Assembly (NCBI GenBank): GCA_007135955.1
Contig: SLHW01000003.1
Span: 27,198 to 51,197 of the forward strand
Origin: Candidatus Saccharimonadota bacterium
Lineage (GTDB): Bacteria; Patescibacteriota; Saccharimonadia; Saccharimonadales; SLHW01
Length of the DNA: 24,000 nucleotides
Reading direction: 5' to 3'
The notes below the pieces were generated by a model. It saw only the letters and a list, made by a program, of their open reading frames with translations. It was not told the origin of the DNA and ran no database searches. Below, one piece after another: positions 251-6,449 of this stretch. The first letter of the stretch is position 1, and each line of letters starts with the position of its first letter. The position numbers were made by a program, and so were the translations under genes.

Positions 251-1864
251 GTGGCAAAACAACCGACTAAGTATGTTTTTGTAACAGGTGGTGTCTTGTC
301 TGGTTTAGGTAAGGGTATTACCGCTGCCTCTATCGGCAACCTTTTGAAAGCTCGGGGACTAAAAGTAAACATTCAAAAATGTGACCCGTACCTAAATGTA
401 GATGCTGGAACACTTAATCCGGCTGAGCACGGTGAGTGTTTTGTCACTGCAGATGGGGCTGAGACTGATTTAGACCTTGGTCATTATGAGCGCTTCTTAG
501 ATCAGGAGCTCTCACGATCCAGTAGCTTGATGAGTGGTCGAGTACTTCGCAATGTAATTGCCGGTGAGAGAGAGGGCAAGTATCTTGGTAAAACAGTACA
601 GTTTATCCCACATGTAACTGATGCAATTCAGACTGAAATTAGGGTGGCCGCTAGGGGACATGATGTGCATATTGTTGAAATCGGCGGTACGGTGGGGGAT
701 TATGAAGGCTTGAGCTTTCTTGAGGCAATCAGGGAGCTTTCGTTTCAGGTTGGTGAGGAAAACAGCTTGTTTGTCCACGTGGTGTATATCCCGTATCTCG
801 GCGCTAGTAAAGAGTTTAAGACTAAGCCAGCTCAAAACGCTGTACGTGACCTACGAGGTTTGGGTATAAGCCCTGACATATTAGTGGCACGCAGTGAAGA
901 GGAGGCTGATAAAGCAATTGTCAAGAAACTGAGCCTGTTTTCTGGCGTGTATCCGGAATCGATCGTGTTGTTGCCAAATGCCCCTTCGATTTATCAGGTG
1001 CCATTGACGCTGGAAGACACCAATATTGGCAAAGTCATTGTTGATAAACTGCAAGTTAAGGCAAAGCGACCAAACCTTAGTGCTTGGCGTTCGGTAGTAA
1101 AGCGAGCCACCACATGCTACGATCGGTCAGTTACCGTTGGGCTAGTAGCTAAGTATCTCGACAATCAAGATACGTATATGTCAGTTATTGAAGCGTTGCA
1201 GGCGGCTGCAATGTGGAATGATACCAATATAAACATTCGGTGGATTGATGCTGAAAAAATTGAGGACAATCGGCCAGCTTCTAAAGCACTCACTGGCTGC
1301 GATGGTGTAGTGATACCAGGTGGCTTTGGTGTGCGAGCGTTAGAAGGCAAGATTCGAGTAGCACAGTATGCGCTCAAGCGAGACGTGCCGTATCTTGGAC
1401 TTTGTCTTGGCTTGCAGATGGCAGTGATAGCTGCTGCCCGAAACGCTGGCATTAGTTCGGCCACTACTGCAGAGATTGACCCCAAGGCAGAGCACCCAGT
1501 CATTAATACTATGATTGACCAGAGAGGCAAAGAGAATACTGGTGGGACGATGCGTCTTGGCAACTATGACTGCCAGATAGCTAAAGGTTCTAAGGTTGCA
1601 AAACTATACGGCAAGCGTCGTATCCAAGAACGTCATCGTCACCGTTACGAGTGCAATAATGATTATCGAGATAGTTACGAGGAATGGGGCATACGGCCTG
1701 TTGGTATCAACCCAGGCCAGGACCTCGTTGAAATTATCGAGGGAGTTAATCATCCATTTTTTGTCGCTAGCCAATTCCATCCGGAATTTACCTCTCGACC
1801 AAATCGACCAAACCCACTCTTCGATGGCTTGATAAAAGCATTGCTTGCAGAGCAGGCAAAATAG
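251..1864 (+). CDS. pyrG: CTP synthase
   Basis: 537-aa ORF with a GTG start behind an SD. The N-terminus KYVFVTGGVLSGLGKGITAASIG is the classic CTP synthase synthetase motif. The C-terminal glutamine amidotransferase part has GLCLGLQ and the HRHRYE signature. Confidence 0.97.
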   Translation: MAKQPTKYVFVTGGVLSGLGKGITAASIGNLLKARGLKVNIQKCDPYLNVDAGTLNPAEHGECFVTADGAETDLDLGHYERFLDQELSRSSSLMSGRVLRNVIAGEREGKYLGKTVQFIPHVTDAIQTEIRVAARGHDVHIVEIGGTVGDYEGLSFLEAIRELSFQVGEENSLFVHVVYIPYLGASKEFKTKPAQNAVRDLRGLGISPDILVARSEEEADKAIVKKLSLFSGVYPESIVLLPNAPSIYQVPLTLEDTNIGKVIVDKLQVKAKRPNLSAWRSVVKRATTCYDRSVTVGLVAKYLDNQDTYMSVIEALQAAAMWNDTNINIRWIDAEKIEDNRPASKALTGCDGVVIPGGFGVRALEGKIRVAQYALKRDVPYLGLCLGLQMAVIAAARNAGISSATTAEIDPKAEHPVINTMIDQRGKENTGGTMRLGNYDCQIAKGSKVAKLYGKRRIQERHRHRYECNNDYRDSYEEWGIRPVGINPGQDLVEIIEGVNHPFFVASQFHPEFTSRPNRPNPLFDGLIKALLAEQAK

Positions 1865-1880
1865 TACTATCATAAGCTCT

Positions 1881-2264
1881 ATGAACGAACAAGCAACAAA
1901 GAAAATATTACTCGTAGAAGATGATGATGCGCTAGCCAGCGTCTATGAAACACGGCTCCAAGCCGAAGGTTTCGATATAAAACGTGTTCCTAATGGCGAG
2001 GATGCTTTAGCTGCAGCGTTGGAGTACAGGCCAGACCTAATTCTACTTGATGTCATGATGCCAAAAGTTAGTGGTTTTGACGTTTTAGATATCTTACGCA
2101 ATACCCCCGAAACAGCTAGTGTAAAAGTAATCATGCTCACAGCACTCAGCCAAGACAGTGACCGCGAGCGGGCAGAGAGTCTCGGTGTAGATGATTACTT
2201 GGTTAAGTCTCAAGTCGTTATCTCTGATGTTGTCGATAAGATTCGCCAACACCTCAGCGTATAA
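1881..2264 (+). CDS. stand-alone CheY-like response-regulator receiver domain
   Basis: MNEQATKKILLVEDDD..., phospho-acceptor context DLILLDVMMPKVSG, IMLTA (Thr) and DDYLVKS (Lys) are all present, with no output domain. ATG 1881 is preferred over the ORF-track start 1845, which overlaps the pyrG 3' end. Confidence 0.85.
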   Translation: MNEQATKKILLVEDDDALASVYETRLQAEGFDIKRVPNGEDALAAALEYRPDLILLDVMMPKVSGFDVLDILRNTPETASVKVIMLTALSQDSDRERAESLGVDDYLVKSQVVISDVVDKIRQHLSV

Positions 2265-2303
2265 GCCTACCAACTAGTCTTACAATATAGGTTAGCCAAT
2301 CAG

Positions 2304-2332
2304 AGCGAAGCGTTTCGCTATTATTAATAATT
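2304..2332 (+). terminator. possible intrinsic terminator after the receiver gene
   Basis: AGCGAA (2304-2309), loop GCGT, TTCGCT (2314-2319), followed by the A/T-rich ATTATTAATAATT. The U-tract is imperfect. Confidence 0.35.
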
Positions 2333-2359
2333 GACAAAAATTCAAAAAAGTGCTAGTAT
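2331..2359 (+). promoter_or_regulatory. near-consensus sigma-70 promoter of the 374-aa orphan gene
   Basis: TTGACA (2331-2336), exactly 17 nt, TAGTAT (2354-2359), with an A/T-rich tract upstream. Confidence 0.6.
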
Positions 2360-2389
2360 CTAAAGCTAAGACCCCCTAAAATAAAAATT

Positions 2390-3514
2390 ATGAAACCAGA
2401 AAGATACAAGCCACCAAACATAGAAACAAGGCAACAAGCAGTTGCCGAGACATATAGAGCAGCTATGGCTAGTGAGCGCACTGAACACGTGCAATTATTG
2501 CCAGGTGCGAAATTTAACATACCAAACGGTATTCAGCTTGATTTTGGAACAGAGAAGCCAGGAGTTGGCAATCAAGAATTACTAGCATTTGTAAAGTCTG
2601 GTGATGCAATGTTTAGCATAACTTCTTTTGAACCAGCTGACAGTCCAGGTAAACTCAGCTATTTTGTTAATGAAATAGGAACGCCAGATAAGCCAGATAA
2701 GCGAGCCCGAGTATACCAGACAGTACCAAAAGCCATTTCAGTTGACCCAATGGATCAAGAGCAGACAAGGAACCCAGGCGTAAAAGTATTTATAGATAAA
2801 GATAGTTCACTAGCAATAGAGGCGAGCGGCAATAACAACATCGATATTTTGTTCTCGGCGGAAGCTAAAGAAATACCTGATTTTTCAGGAGGAATAACAT
2901 CAGAAAAAACAGCAGCGGGCGGCTTGCGCCGTTTTATCCAGAAGTTTAAAGGAGCTGGCGAATTAGATAACGTCGAGCCAATGGATTTTAATGATTTTCG
3001 TATCTGGGCACCTAAGACCTCAGACGTAGCCTTTATAGCAAAGCGCCAACAGAAGCCTAGTGAAAAAATAAGCCAACGGCCTTTATTCAGTGGTTTGCCT
3101 GAGGATAAGGCCAGACAGGAGACTCCTGGCATTATCGATAGTGTACCGCTGGGAGAGAAACCAGATCCAGAAGAAAAAACTCTGACGCCAGTGATTGACC
3201 GCGTGCCAAGCTTGGCTGAGCTGAAGGCTGAAGCAGCACATGCTCAAGAAGTAGAGGATGCCGAACAGGATCTGAAAGATTTTAAAGAGCAGTTTAGCAA
3301 AGAAGACCAACTAGGCCTATGGAAGTACGCAGCTAATCTACTCAGTAAAATAGAAGCTCAGCAAAAGCATGACGGGCAAGCCTCGATTGATTACGGACAA
3401 CTCGCCGGCGAAGGGCTCCGGATGTTATCTCCGGCAGCCAAAGAAGCCGCTGAAGAATACCGGGCTCGCTTTAATAGGCTCCATGACATGCGCAATAAAA
3501 GCAAAGAATATTAG
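2390..3514 (+). CDS. hypothetical protein, 374 aa, no recognisable family; charged, probably helical C-terminal third
   Basis: Long ORF with only short antisense shadow ORFs opposite it and its own strong promoter. No signal peptide or TM segment is visible. No SD in the ~24-nt leader. Confidence 0.7.
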   Translation: MKPERYKPPNIETRQQAVAETYRAAMASERTEHVQLLPGAKFNIPNGIQLDFGTEKPGVGNQELLAFVKSGDAMFSITSFEPADSPGKLSYFVNEIGTPDKPDKRARVYQTVPKAISVDPMDQEQTRNPGVKVFIDKDSSLAIEASGNNNIDILFSAEAKEIPDFSGGITSEKTAAGGLRRFIQKFKGAGELDNVEPMDFNDFRIWAPKTSDVAFIAKRQQKPSEKISQRPLFSGLPEDKARQETPGIIDSVPLGEKPDPEEKTLTPVIDRVPSLAELKAEAAHAQEVEDAEQDLKDFKEQFSKEDQLGLWKYAANLLSKIEAQQKHDGQASIDYGQLAGEGLRMLSPAAKEAAEEYRARFNRLHDMRNKSKEY

Positions 3515-3520
3515 GCTGCA

Positions 3521-3826
3521 ATGAGCGAAAACAGAGAAAACGAAGGTCGGCAAGTCGATAATATTTTACCAAAAGGCGTGGTTGATGCAGAAAAGGCTAT
3601 CTTTGATGACATTGTTGGAAGTACCCCCGATGGTATAAGTCACGAATACATTGATATCTCAGATCAGCCACAAACTACAAGGGAAAAGCCGGTAGCTAAT
3701 AAAGCGTTAGCTAGAATCAGAAATACTAGCGGTGCCATTGTGCGATTCTTCAGCGAGCTGCCAGCTAGTGGTGGTGCTGCATTGTGGGAAGGTGAAGTGC
3801 GGAAAAAGACCCATCATGAAGATTAG
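3521..3826 (+). CDS. hypothetical protein, 101 aa
   Basis: ORF starts 6 nt after the stop of the 374-aa gene, on the same strand. I recognise no family. Confidence 0.5.
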   Translation: MSENRENEGRQVDNILPKGVVDAEKAIFDDIVGSTPDGISHEYIDISDQPQTTREKPVANKALARIRNTSGAIVRFFSELPASGGAALWEGEVRKKTHHED

Positions 3827-3886
3827 AGCAGTAAAAACATACTGAAGAAGTCGCTTGCAAAAAACATGCTTGATGAAAAATTAAAA

Positions 3887-3915
3887 TTGACTATTTAGCA
3901 AGTAAGTACTAGTAT
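3887..3915 (+). promoter_or_regulatory. near-consensus sigma-70 promoter of the 283-aa orphan gene
   Basis: TTGACT (3887-3892), exactly 17 nt, TAGTAT (3910-3915), with an A-rich tract upstream. Confidence 0.6.
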
Positions 3916-3926
3916 TCATTGTAAAT

Positions 3927-4778
3927 GTGAAAGAGAGAGTTCTTAACATGGAAAACCGCCTAGACATTAGCGACGTGAATCCAGTAGCTAAGCATAGCTT
4001 AGATACTTCAGAAGTGGATCCAACAGAAGAAAAGTTACGGGTCATAACCGCAGAACTTGCAGCACAAACTATCGAGGCAGTAGGTGATGGTCCGCGATTG
4101 TCGACTGTTTCCACAGAAGGTTCAGTGCCTTTTTTTGATTATGATTATATCGGCAATACAAAAAGTATCGGTGGCGGCATGCGTCTAGAGCTTGACCCTG
4201 AATCGTCGATTATTGCATGCGGAGGGACTCGCTCTCCAGTAGTTTTTTCAGAATTACACGCAGCGATTTATTCGAAAGACGCAGTGTTTTTCGTAATGTC
4301 ATCAAGGCTGGATGCGCTCACCAAAGAACGGCACTACCTATTAACTCGCAAAGCTTTAGTCTATAAAGAATCAGATGAAACAGACATTCCGCACCCAGAA
4401 ATTATAGGTGTACTAGAAAGAGGAAGTGAAGTCACTTTGGTTGATAGTCGAGGGTATGTTTCTCACAGTAAAGGCCAAGTTTCTTTGGGTGTTAATGGCA
4501 GAGTAAATATTAGTGCACTTGGTCAGCAAGAGCTGGATGTTGCAACAGCTCAAGGTGCGACTCAAGAAACGTATGGAGATGTAGGGGTAGAAAGCATAAT
4601 ACGATTGCTGTTTAAGGGTTTTTCCGGTAGAACAACAGAGAAGCATCGAATTACCGAGGTAGTGATTGGCACCCAACCTAAAAGCAATGATGAATCTAGC
4701 GGAGTTGATTTTTCTCAAATGCCTCTGCAGTCTTGGTTGCCAAATTCAAATACGCTACGCAAAATCATTGAAACTTAA
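3927..4778 (+). CDS. hypothetical protein, 283 aa (276 aa if ATG 3948 is used), possible distant paralogue of the 374-aa protein
   Basis: Long ORF behind its own promoter. GTG 3927 lies 11 nt after the -10 box; ATG 3948 is the alternative start. I recognise no family, signal peptide or TM segment. Confidence 0.7.
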   Translation: MKERVLNMENRLDISDVNPVAKHSLDTSEVDPTEEKLRVITAELAAQTIEAVGDGPRLSTVSTEGSVPFFDYDYIGNTKSIGGGMRLELDPESSIIACGGTRSPVVFSELHAAIYSKDAVFFVMSSRLDALTKERHYLLTRKALVYKESDETDIPHPEIIGVLERGSEVTLVDSRGYVSHSKGQVSLGVNGRVNISALGQQELDVATAQGATQETYGDVGVESIIRLLFKGFSGRTTEKHRITEVVIGTQPKSNDESSGVDFSQMPLQSWLPNSNTLRKIIET

Positions 4779-4789
4779 GTTGAGTTGCT

Positions 4790-5062
4790 TTATTCAACGA
4801 CGACTTCGGTGCGGGGAACTGATTTGCCGGTGAATTTTTTGTACTTGCGGTCTTGGTAGCGCACAACGCCATCTTGTTTGGCGTGAATAGTGTAGTCGCG
4901 GCTCATAAAAGTGCCTTTGCCAGCACGTTTGCTGGCGCCAGTTTGACGAACGATCACTTGACCAGTCTTAACTGGTTGACCAGTGTAGAGTTTGACGCCG
5001 AGGCGTTTGCCGGCGCTGTCCCGATTGTTTTTACTTGATCCACCTGCTTTTACCTTACTCAT
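4790..5062 (-). CDS. rpmA: 50S ribosomal protein L27
   Basis: MSKVKAGGSSKNNRDSAGKRLGVKLYTGQPVKTGQVIVRQTG... matches the L27 signature (KAGGS-x-NGRDS-x-KRLGVK). SD AGGAGA lies 6 nt upstream. Confidence 0.95.
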   Translation of the reverse strand: MSKVKAGGSSKNNRDSAGKRLGVKLYTGQPVKTGQVIVRQTGASKRAGKGTFMSRDYTIHAKQDGVVRYQDRKYKKFTGKSVPRTEVVVE

Positions 5063-5231
5063 CAGTTTTCTCCTGTCGCCAAAGCCTGCTCAGGTGCAGA
5101 GCACCTGACTCTGCTTTGGCTCACCGCGCCTGCTGCTTCACCCGACTTAAATACTTCCTAATCGTATTATTTATACGACTCGGTCCACTTTAAGTCGGCT
5201 TCATTGCATCCATCGGCGCAGGAGAAACCTG
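5063..5231 (-). promoter_or_regulatory. structured 5' leader of rpmA with an SD-sequestering closing helix (candidate ribosomal-protein leader or riboswitch)
   Basis: On the - strand, CAGGUUUCUCCUG (5231..5219) pairs with CAGGAGAAAACUG (5075..5063). Enclosed are a 10-bp helix (5198..5189 / 5151..5142) capped by the hairpin 5178..5162, and a two-tier hairpin at 5120..5078. A possible -10 TGTAAT sits at 5237..5232. Confidence 0.5.
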
Positions 5232-5261
5232 ATTACACGCTCGGCTGTTAATTTGCATCCG

Positions 5262-6449
5262 TTACGTCCGGGTGAGGACGAGGAGTTCACGGGCGACGAT
5301 TTGGCCTTCTCTACGGTAGATGAGGTCTTCTGTCTTCGCATGAACAAAACTCTGACGAGTATAGCCTAATTTCTCTAGAGAAGCAAGGGTTTTTAGGTGG
5401 TGAACCGCGTTATTTACGTGCCAAGCGGGTACAGCAATACACAGTCGAAAGTCGGGCTTGGTTTGTCTAGTAACGTTTTTGAGGAACTTTGAGGTAATGG
5501 TATCGACATCTTGCATCACTTTTTTGAGAGTTGTCTGGTCTGGGGTTGTAGCAAATGGGCGACCAAGGTATGCTTCACCGGCGATAGTAGTGAAGTCAAT
5601 GCCCCAAGTGTGAGTAGTGGCATCAGCTACGGTAGTAAAGTAATGAGGATTTTCTAGCGAAAAAGCTTTGGTAAGCCATGCTAGATTTGCTTCGGTGTAG
5701 TCAATCATGCGCTGTTCAATATCACTACCGTACGCAGCATAGTTCATGAGCACCGTCTCTTGCGCAATTACTCCGGTGCCACAGAAGGGATCAAGAACGG
5801 TTATTGCTGTCGCTTCGTCATCCGTTAAAGCGAGCTGTCCGACGGCAAGGTTGACGATAGTCTGCGCTAGTTTGGGTGGTAGCATGCCGACCTTGGCATC
5901 ACGCTTGGGACGCTGTTGGTCACGGGCAGTGTAGGCGTCGATATCTTGCACGGCGGTTGTTTTGCCAATATAGAGCTGGTTGTCGGCCCCTTTGCAGATA
6001 ATGATTTCGGCACCATTTTCATCAGTGAAGTGGTTATGAAAAACTTGGGCACTCGATAGCGCGAGATGCTTATTCGGTACAACGCGAACAGATCTACCAG
6101 TACTACGTAGCGCCTTTTTTGCTGTAAGGGCAGTCTTCTGTAGCTGCTTAAGTGATAGGTGCATGCCGTAGACGCTAAACCCAAGATGTATTTTACGGTC
6201 GGGCATGTCAGCAAGCTGTGTCGGCAAGGTATTAACAAGATAGCGCTCTATTTCATTCCAGTTTTTTTGAGGAATGACCGTAAAAAGTTGCGCGATTTTT
6301 TGGGTGCCGCCAAGTCGTGAAAAGTCAGGCGTGCAACTCAGTAGGGCAACCTCCGAATTAAGCTTTGTTACCGCATCACCACCATAGAGACTCTCTAATT
6401 CAGCGAGACTGATTTCTGATTGTCGCCCCAATATGCAAAGTGTTTTCAT
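5262..6449 (-). CDS. SAM-dependent RNA (guanine-N2-type) methyltransferase, UPF0020/Trm11-RlmL-like
   Basis: 395-aa ORF. MLPPKLAQTIVNLA followed by the DPFCGTGVIAQE SAM-binding motif is typical of UPF0020 RNA methylases. GGAGGAGG lies directly upstream of the ATG. Confidence 0.7.
   Translation of the reverse strand: MKTLCILGRQSEISLAELESLYGGDAVTKLNSEVALLSCTPDFSRLGGTQKIAQLFTVIPQKNWNEIERYLVNTLPTQLADMPDRKIHLGFSVYGMHLSLKQLQKTALTAKKALRSTGRSVRVVPNKHLALSSAQVFHNHFTDENGAEIIICKGADNQLYIGKTTAVQDIDAYTARDQQRPKRDAKVGMLPPKLAQTIVNLAVGQLALTDDEATAITVLDPFCGTGVIAQETVLMNYAAYGSDIEQRMIDYTEANLAWLTKAFSLENPHYFTTVADATTHTWGIDFTTIAGEAYLGRPFATTPDQTTLKKVMQDVDTITSKFLKNVTRQTKPDFRLCIAVPAWHVNNAVHHLKTLASLEKLGYTRQSFVHAKTEDLIYRREGQIVARELLVLTRT

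Follow-up and report, generated by a model that had tools for sequence, protein, structure and literature searches.

The spacer upstream of rpmA, the gene for ribosomal protein L27, holds what is probably an ancient member of a dispersed family of insertion elements, similar in kind to the RPEs of Rickettsia, that is found in the Saccharibacteria and more rarely in other Patescibacteria. The element has a conserved core, made up of the domains P2 and P3, that is closed by a locus-specific helix, P1; upstream of genes, the 3′ arm of P1 is the region of the ribosome-binding site (RBS). The copy described here lies in a 24,000-nt window of the source genome (G000; 0.73 Mb, 93% complete), in which the covariance model of the family matches a single copy (Table 1). 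Genomes of relatives are numbered G001 onwards.

Structure of the element at the rpmA locus

On the minus strand, the 199-nt spacer between the stop of a methyltransferase (MTase)-like ORF (5262) and the rpmA ATG (5062) carries a multi-helix fold. The closing helix P1 pairs CAGGUUUCUCCUG (5231-5219) with CAGGAGAAAACUG (5075-5063), interrupted by a single G:A mismatch, and continues into AUCAG/CUGAU, taking in the A and U of the rpmA AUG. Enclosed by it, P2 contains the helix formed by CCGACUUAAA (5198-5189) and UUUAAGUCGG (5151-5142), which is capped by UCGUAU-N5-AUACGA (5178-5162), and P3 stacks GCCAAAGC/GCUUUGGC and UCAGGUGC/GCACCUGA (5120-5078) on either side of a 4x4 loop, AGAG/GCAG. The P2 loops read GAUG, AAGG, GGA..GAG, UGA..GAG and CUGAC in the family consensus, from which the rpmA copy deviates at several places (UGA to UUA, GAG to AAG, CUGAC to GUGAA and AAGG to AAUG). 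These helices had all been proposed in the initial annotation, and each is present on the minus strand where it had been placed.

Table 1 Features of the rpmA locus (positions within the window).
Feature	Position	Strand	Description
MTase-like ORF (395 aa)	5262..6449	-	weak Pfam MTase matches; upstream of rpmA
MTase stop-to-element spacer	5234..5261	-	28 nt
Whole element copy	5060..5233	-	covariance-model match 154.1 bits, E = 1.4e-37; ~170 nt: P1 + P2 + P3
P1 5′ strand, AUCAGGUUUCUCCUG	5219..5233	-	locus-specific anti-RBS arm; partner is 5061-5075
P2 domain	5122..5218	-	long interrupted hairpin; conserved internal loops; apical hairpin CGUAUA/UAUACG
P3 two-tier hairpin	5078..5120	-	conserved 4x4 loop AGAG/GCAG; apical GCUCUGC
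P1 3′ strand	5061..5075	-	holds rpmA SD (AGGAGA), spacer, A and U of start codon
rpmA (L27, 90 aa)	4790..5062	-	Pfam PF01016, E = 2.8e-24

The predicted minimum free energy of positions 5050-5262 (213 nt, covering the spacer and the opening codons of rpmA) is -88.5 kcal/mol, compared with -56.6 +/- 4.1 kcal/mol for 200 dinucleotide shuffles, none of which equalled the native sequence (z = -7.83). The self-complementarity of the spacer is therefore beyond chance, as had been suspected. The plus strand of the same stretch is nearly as stable (z = -7.7), and since both strands fold well, the functional strand had to come from a comparison of copies. Within the predicted ensemble, the bases of the Shine–Dalgarno (SD) sequence have an unpaired probability of at most 0.013; the values for the first two bases of the AUG (A and U) are 0.015 and 0.066, respectively. 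The closing helix is thus predicted to bury the rpmA SD, which agrees with the initial annotation, and opening 5075-5060 to single strand would cost about 8.8 kcal/mol.

No promoter-like site was found on the minus strand between the MTase-like ORF and rpmA, and this ORF is probably co-transcribed with the element and rpmA. The gene rplU (L21) is not beside rpmA, as had been noted from the window, and sits on another contig near ileS (G000:C54:712-1005, minus strand, downstream of the ileS match at ~1820-3934, minus strand, on the same 5.3-kb contig). In the lineage of the source genome, rplU and rpmA are unlinked and no longer form their usual operon. In Firmicutes, the L21 leader precedes rplU-rpmA.

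Covariation and selection on the fold

Among 62 aligned copies, 93.5% of the cells at consensus pairs are paired, versus 70.1% in shuffles and 23-40% when the partners are slid, and cells with double changes number 551 versus 164 in shuffles. Double changes support covariation at 30 of the 34 consensus pairs, so the proposed helices do covary in relatives. The six P2 helices, defined from RNAalifold and counted pairs in the same copies, are 83-97% paired and show double changes at 21 of 24 pairs, comprising all pairs of helices 1-5 and 4 of the 7 in helix 6. The upper helix of P3 covaries in nearly every copy (for example UCAGGUGC/GCACCUGA versus UUAGAUGC/GCAUCUAA versus UUGAUAGC/GCUAUCAA). 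G:U combinations outnumber A:C by about 3:1 in the family copies (113 versus 38), and this excess fixes the functional strand. Selection acts on the fold of the sense strand, and does so at every locus.

The P2 and P3 core also contains many invariant unpaired bases and complex internal loops, and it shares with riboswitches an aptamer-like, covarying organization. At the rpmA locus, the element is 72-84% identical between genomes, versus 28-68% at the 4-fold sites of rpmA; the MTase C terminus has 35-69% protein identity between the same genomes. Strong purifying selection at individual loci would not be expected of DNA that is merely selfish, and it may point to a function.

A locus-specific closing helix

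P1 is present in almost every copy, with a mean duplex energy of -24.3 kcal/mol versus -15.2 kcal/mol in shuffles. Its sequence differs from locus to locus whereas the core is conserved, and the orthologous rpmA copies carry compensatory changes in it (UUUAGGGUUCUC/GAGAAUCCUAAA in G002 and CCUCUUGC/GCAAGAGG in G001). For most gene-proximal copies with a reliably placed start, the inner end of P1 lies at -12 to -17 from the start codon, so the SD is covered, and often the AUG too. Masking of the RBS is a generic consequence of P1 forming beside genes, and not an rpmA-specific expression platform. The rpmA copy of G036 (L035 ~1377-1522) consists of P1 and P2 without P3, and its 5′ arm still pairs with the SD (CGCGAAGGAGAAUC).

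Where copies lie inside ORFs, the outer pairs of P1 can be host codons that are conserved in insert-free orthologues, as with LVILP of UDG, YLL of IleRS, QDF of Der and IVD of a PrmC-like protein. We considered derivation of outer P1 from host sequence as a general rule; it fits these four hosts, but not an Ogt-like ORF or an intergenic site, where the insert contains both arms of P1.

Distribution of the family

BLAST searches of 40 relatives returned full-length homologues 5′ of rpmA in two congeners and partial matches elsewhere. The copy between the MTase-like ORF and rpmA is common to all five genomes of the genus, with the P1 sequence rebuilt between genomes, and the same architecture occurs between rplV and rpsC in G016 and inside ileS in G019. 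A covariance model, R1, was built from an alignment of 8 sequences, in which compensatory changes were seen at 28 of the 34 consensus pairs. R1 matches five diverged copies in the source genome (0.73 Mb) and 34, 42, 21, 36 and 23 copies in five relatives, a density of 5-42 per genome of 0.7-1.0 Mb. Across the order, 106 of 151 genomes have matches, as do 7 genomes from other orders of the phylum; these counts depend on R1, which was trained mainly on rpmA-locus copies, so genomes without a match may hold diverged versions.

A scan for the pattern in public genomes, with R1 as a check on its matches, recovered the element mostly from Ca. Saccharibacteria, Saccharimonadales and Nanosyncoccus and more rarely from Paceibacterota, Berkelbacteria and Zambryskibacteria MAGs; it confirmed no copies on viral contigs. 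Two MAGs labelled Gammaproteobacteria gave model matches of 42 bits (full-length) and 35 bits (cut by the locus end), and the contigs concerned (L150 and L152) are probably mis-binned CPR contigs. Other Saccharibacteria carry mini-versions of ~75-83 nt that consist of P2 only, as well as a tandem array of three units (L209 3486-3902; L219, L204, L192, L157). P2 looks like the basic module of the family. In the source genome, an ORF-poor region of ~1.9 kb at a contig end (G000:C46:18864-20724) contains two diverged tandem copies ~480 nt apart (L083 1501-1674 and 1981-2148).

The rpmA element has no match in Rfam 15 at gathering thresholds, and in E-value mode its sole match, Mu-gpT-DE (E = 1.7), is at chance level. 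Rfam searches with 17 other copies gave nothing on the element at E <=5, so the suggestion that this is not an already described element held for the rpmA copy and for these 17. Full-text searches of the literature turned up no description of such repeats in CPR or Saccharibacteria, and lysM-TM7 is the sole TM7 motif of Weinberg 2017. This family of structured elements of ~170 bases in Saccharibacteria is apparently undescribed.

Genomic contexts

We surveyed contexts on one contig of 706 kb, taken whole (G058 C2; the genes of relatives are simple ORF calls). About nine of its 31 copies are in sense and abut a start codon, about seven are antisense and abut or overlap the stop codon of a gene, and roughly nine (seven sense, two antisense) lie inside ORFs; the remaining copies occupy other intergenic positions. 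Genes located 3′ of sense copies encode L27, S3, NusA, MetRS, ValRS, Obg, LepA, Der, YebC, PyrG, Xth, MurC/D, Pyk and MnmA. Such a set, functionally heterogeneous, amounts to no more than the housekeeping genes at the core of a minimal genome, and the consistent 5′ UTR placement of riboswitches, in sense to related genes, is not seen.

Several positions are old. Orthologous copies have been kept across families upstream of Obg, MetRS and Der, and an antisense position at the 3′ end of rny is common to five families, including that of the source genome. The source-genome copy (G000:C18:3770-3936, plus strand; L082 1501-1667) overlaps the last ~9 nt of rny (RNase Y). In a Saccharibacteria MAG from the Salar de Ascotan (JAXHNE010000004.1), a copy on the plus strand (L191 6952-7120) ends ~50 nt before a 23S rRNA match that begins at model position 46, which places the copy at the predicted 23S 5′ end.

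The initial annotation had read the structure as a candidate new ribosomal-protein leader or riboswitch in front of rpmA. Its multi-helix, RNA-type structure and its sequestration of the SD are borne out. The dedication to rpmA is not, because the same element occupies many unrelated loci: five copies are found in the source genome and 21-42 in relatives, beside unrelated genes, in antisense and within ORFs, and 24 of 30 rpmA loci (those of the source genome and relatives) lack the element at E<=0.01.

Copies inside coding regions

At least 14 host proteins carry the element within their ORFs, among them IleRS, Der (in two genomes), UvrA, PcrA, DnaG, UDG, the MTase itself and TsaB-like, Ogt-like, PrmC-like and YjbR-like proteins. 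For most hosts tested, the orthologue in the source genome lacks the insert (IleRS, Der, UDG, DnaG, MTase and the Ogt-, PrmC- and YjbR-like proteins). The in-ORF copies were stop-free in each case examined and add ~50-60 residues. Nearly all use the same reading frame, at least in the first half, and some switch frame in the 3′ half; the resulting peptide has the form LDG(V/A)QG..E(Q)R(T/S)E(P/A)Y..Y.EG. Intergenic copies, in contrast, have 1-7 stops in the frame that in-ORF copies use, and among the 31 copies of G058 we saw none that splits a gene homologous to one of the source genome by a stop codon. These open frames indicate translation through the element, as in RPEs, rather than splicing, and the in-ORF copies are evidently read through as an insert of ~55 residues.

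The insert peptide matches no Pfam family, and a word-indexed protein search with it recovered the query alone, the peptide being too variable. An AlphaFold model of insert-bearing Der, based on a two-sequence alignment, has a mean pLDDT of 56, with values of ~25 and no secondary structure in the insert, which may be a disordered loop.

Age and mobility

Identity between copies within a genome is at most 79%, and the five copies of the source genome are 44-54% mutually identical. The lack of near-identical copies indicates that there has been no recent transposition. Old as they are, the copies have kept their fold, unlike selfish repeats in decay. Both filled and empty sites occur. The MTase-like ORF and rpmA are also adjacent in the three element-free relatives whose locus was readable (G031, G034 and G016), and in these empty sites the ORF ends 1-32 nt before the ATG; they make up three of the four element-free rpmA loci with a placeable start. 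At two such loci (L033 of G034 and L040 of G016), 1-4 nt separate the MTase stop from the rpmA ATG, and the SD (AAGGAAA or AGGAAG) falls within the final codons of the MTase. Genomes with the element have their SD in the 3′ arm of P1 instead. The source genome is itself empty at four sites that are filled in G001, G002 or G003, and has a 17-nt mini-hairpin at one of them.

Five comparisons of filled and empty sites revealed no clear or consistent direct repeat of the kind expected of a target-site duplication. The tree of the element at the rpmA locus conflicts with that of L27, so strict vertical descent is uncertain; judging from these trees, replacement by recombination or repeated insertion at this locus is possible. 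Two candidates for a mobilizing enzyme were rejected since neither tracks the element: reverse transcriptase, present in 30 of 151 genomes, and Y1 transposase, with Y1_Tnp in 45 of 151. The Y1_Tnp-like ORFs (~205-250 aa) align with the profile (IS200-like/RAYT) over its C-terminal two-thirds only and often number several per genome, for example G058:C2:563994-564221 (minus strand), six loci in G016 and nine in G031.

Comparison with known systems

RPEs are short palindromic repeats of ~150 bp that occur in intergenic regions and in frame within housekeeping ORFs of Rickettsia (PMC10969869). Like the element described here, they are self-complementary and multi-copy in a reduced genome, contribute a conserved peptide that is absent from orthologues, and have no associated transposase (PMC10969869). 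The family shows the defining traits of such repeats, being multi-copy, ~100-200 bp long, self-complementary and in frame in unrelated ORFs; the likeness is one of description, and given the phyletic distance, with hosts in another phylum, we assume it to be analogy and not homology. The element differs from RPEs in its three-helix architecture, its many invariant unpaired bases, its very strong covariation, its purifying selection at individual loci and its lack of young copies, as well as in a closing helix that varies with the locus and in many cases takes in the RBS or host codons.

MITEs such as Correia/NEMIS, ERIC, BOX and RUP are likewise non-autonomous, structured and dispersed, are transcribed within mRNAs, and can change the expression of neighbouring genes (PMC10969869). 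Unlike them, the element has no constant terminal inverted repeats, clear target-site duplication, parent IS or near-identical copies, we found neither a mobilizing enzyme nor recent copies, and its core is more conserved than neighbouring synonymous sites. Similarly, REP/REPIN sequences with their RAYT (Y1) are old, vertically retained, dispersed palindromes with strand-specific hairpins, whereas the element is about 4x larger, multi-helix and frequently intragenic, with no consistent Y1 association. The L21 leader and translational riboswitches share with the rpmA copy a structured 5′ region and a closing helix that buries the SD of a ribosomal protein gene. L21-type leaders differ in being specific to ribosomal proteins; the element numbers dozens of copies, some of them antisense or intragenic, and has neither an Rfam match nor an exclusive link to ribosomal protein operons.

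Three further identities were considered and rejected. A group I or II intron or other self-splicing RNA does not fit, as Rfam gave no intron match and each in-gene copy has an open frame. P3 contains an SRP-like string (GUCAGG...AGCAG), and a divergent SRP RNA was dismissed on account of the multiple copies, the covariation of the string as a helix and the lack of a GNRA tetraloop. The source genome has no match to RF00169 or RF01854, and its RNase P RNA was found on contig C50; its SRP RNA is either unassembled or diverged. A K-turn or L7Ae-binding RNA, suggested by the tandem G:A loops, was set aside as no L7Ae-family gene occurs in the 151 genomes searched.

Discussion

Several explanations compete with an ancient insertion element at rpmA. 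The family could be a regulatory RNA in which the core binds one trans-acting factor, a protein or small molecule, that stabilizes or opens P1 and thereby co-regulates dozens of housekeeping mRNAs, mobility being merely how the module spread. Much in the data suits such a role: the invariant unpaired nucleotides and complex internal loops, in situ purifying selection as strong as that on rpmA codon positions 1 and 2, the compensatory P1 changes at orthologous loci, the P1 that overlies the RBS in most gene-proximal copies, and the orthologous copies retained across families (five families share the one at the 3′ end of rny, and others precede Obg, MetRS and Der). We nevertheless consider it unlikely, given that an RBS switch makes no sense for the many copies that are antisense to all neighbours or within ORFs, that nothing but housekeeping unites the genes downstream, and that we found no candidate factor, L7Ae-type K-turn binders being absent from all 151 genomes searched. 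A leader or riboswitch dedicated to L27 is far less credible still and can be set almost entirely aside; it would explain why the SD is sequestered and why the five congeneric genomes conserve the element, but against it stand the copies at unrelated loci and in ORFs, the element-free majority of rpmA loci, and Rfam searches that showed no likeness to the L21 leader or to another family.

The element might instead be a processing or punctuation signal, or an intron-like RNA that is excised. As a signal, the fold would direct cleavage at the foot of P1 and so set the 5′ terminus of downstream RNAs, for instance of leaderless mRNAs that begin with AUG or of the 23S rRNA. The P1 3′ arm does end a few nt from the AUG in many copies, and the copy ~50 nt before the 23S match (model position 46) has a suitable position. 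We regard this as improbable, since the open frames of every in-ORF copy examined indicate read-through, not cleavage or splicing, and Rfam gave no ribozyme or intron match. An equally doubtful proposal is that the element acts as single-stranded DNA, in the manner of REPIN or IS200-IS605, its hairpins serving a Y1 (HUH) transposase as recognition sites or taking part in replication or recombination, and RNA folding being incidental. Strand-specific structure with G:T-compatible wobbles, the stability of both strands, and Y1_Tnp-like ORFs in 45 of 151 genomes (one of them ~540 nt from a G058 copy) are in keeping with it. Against it, searches of G112 and G019, both rich in copies, and of the source genome yielded no Y1-like genes, the orientation of copies on the 706-kb contig has no replication-type polarity, and REP hairpins are much smaller and simpler than the element.

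We therefore favour an ancient, RPE-like insertion at rpmA. An ancestor of the genus would have acquired the element in the very short spacer between the MTase-like ORF and rpmA. In the resulting transcript, P2 and P3 may fold first, after which P1 would close over the RBS. Closed P1 would hold L27 translation down, or tie it to whatever opens or recognizes the family fold. The opener might be a trans-acting factor or simply the kinetics of unfolding, and in either case it would be a property of the whole family rather than a feedback loop specific to L27. This effect on L27 translation is a thermodynamic prediction.

The strong in situ conservation gives a family-wide RNA function an appreciable, if lesser, probability. 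More speculatively, the family may be a new class of ancient, selection-maintained RNA domain in Patescibacteria mRNAs, recognized by a conserved trans-acting factor and serving global post-transcriptional control or as a processing signal. Such a domain would mask the RBS in 5′ UTRs, occupy 3′ and antisense positions as well, and be translated inside coding regions. Among family-wide functions, a processing signal is less likely than a module that binds a trans-acting factor.

To our knowledge, in-frame "selfish" palindromic repeats in essential genes were until now essentially a Rickettsia curiosity. An analogous and far more intricate family in the Saccharibacteria and other CPR bacteria indicates that the phenomenon recurs in independently reduced genomes. 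The family combines a conserved fold like that of a non-coding RNA, a locus-specific helix that masks the RBS, and translation inside ORFs, and it raises the question of whether a mobile element is used as a genome-wide RNA module. For annotation, dozens of ~55-residue inserts and "structured leaders" in CPR genomes should not count as gene-specific features, and a covariance model of the family would clean up screens of these genomes for non-coding RNAs and riboswitches.
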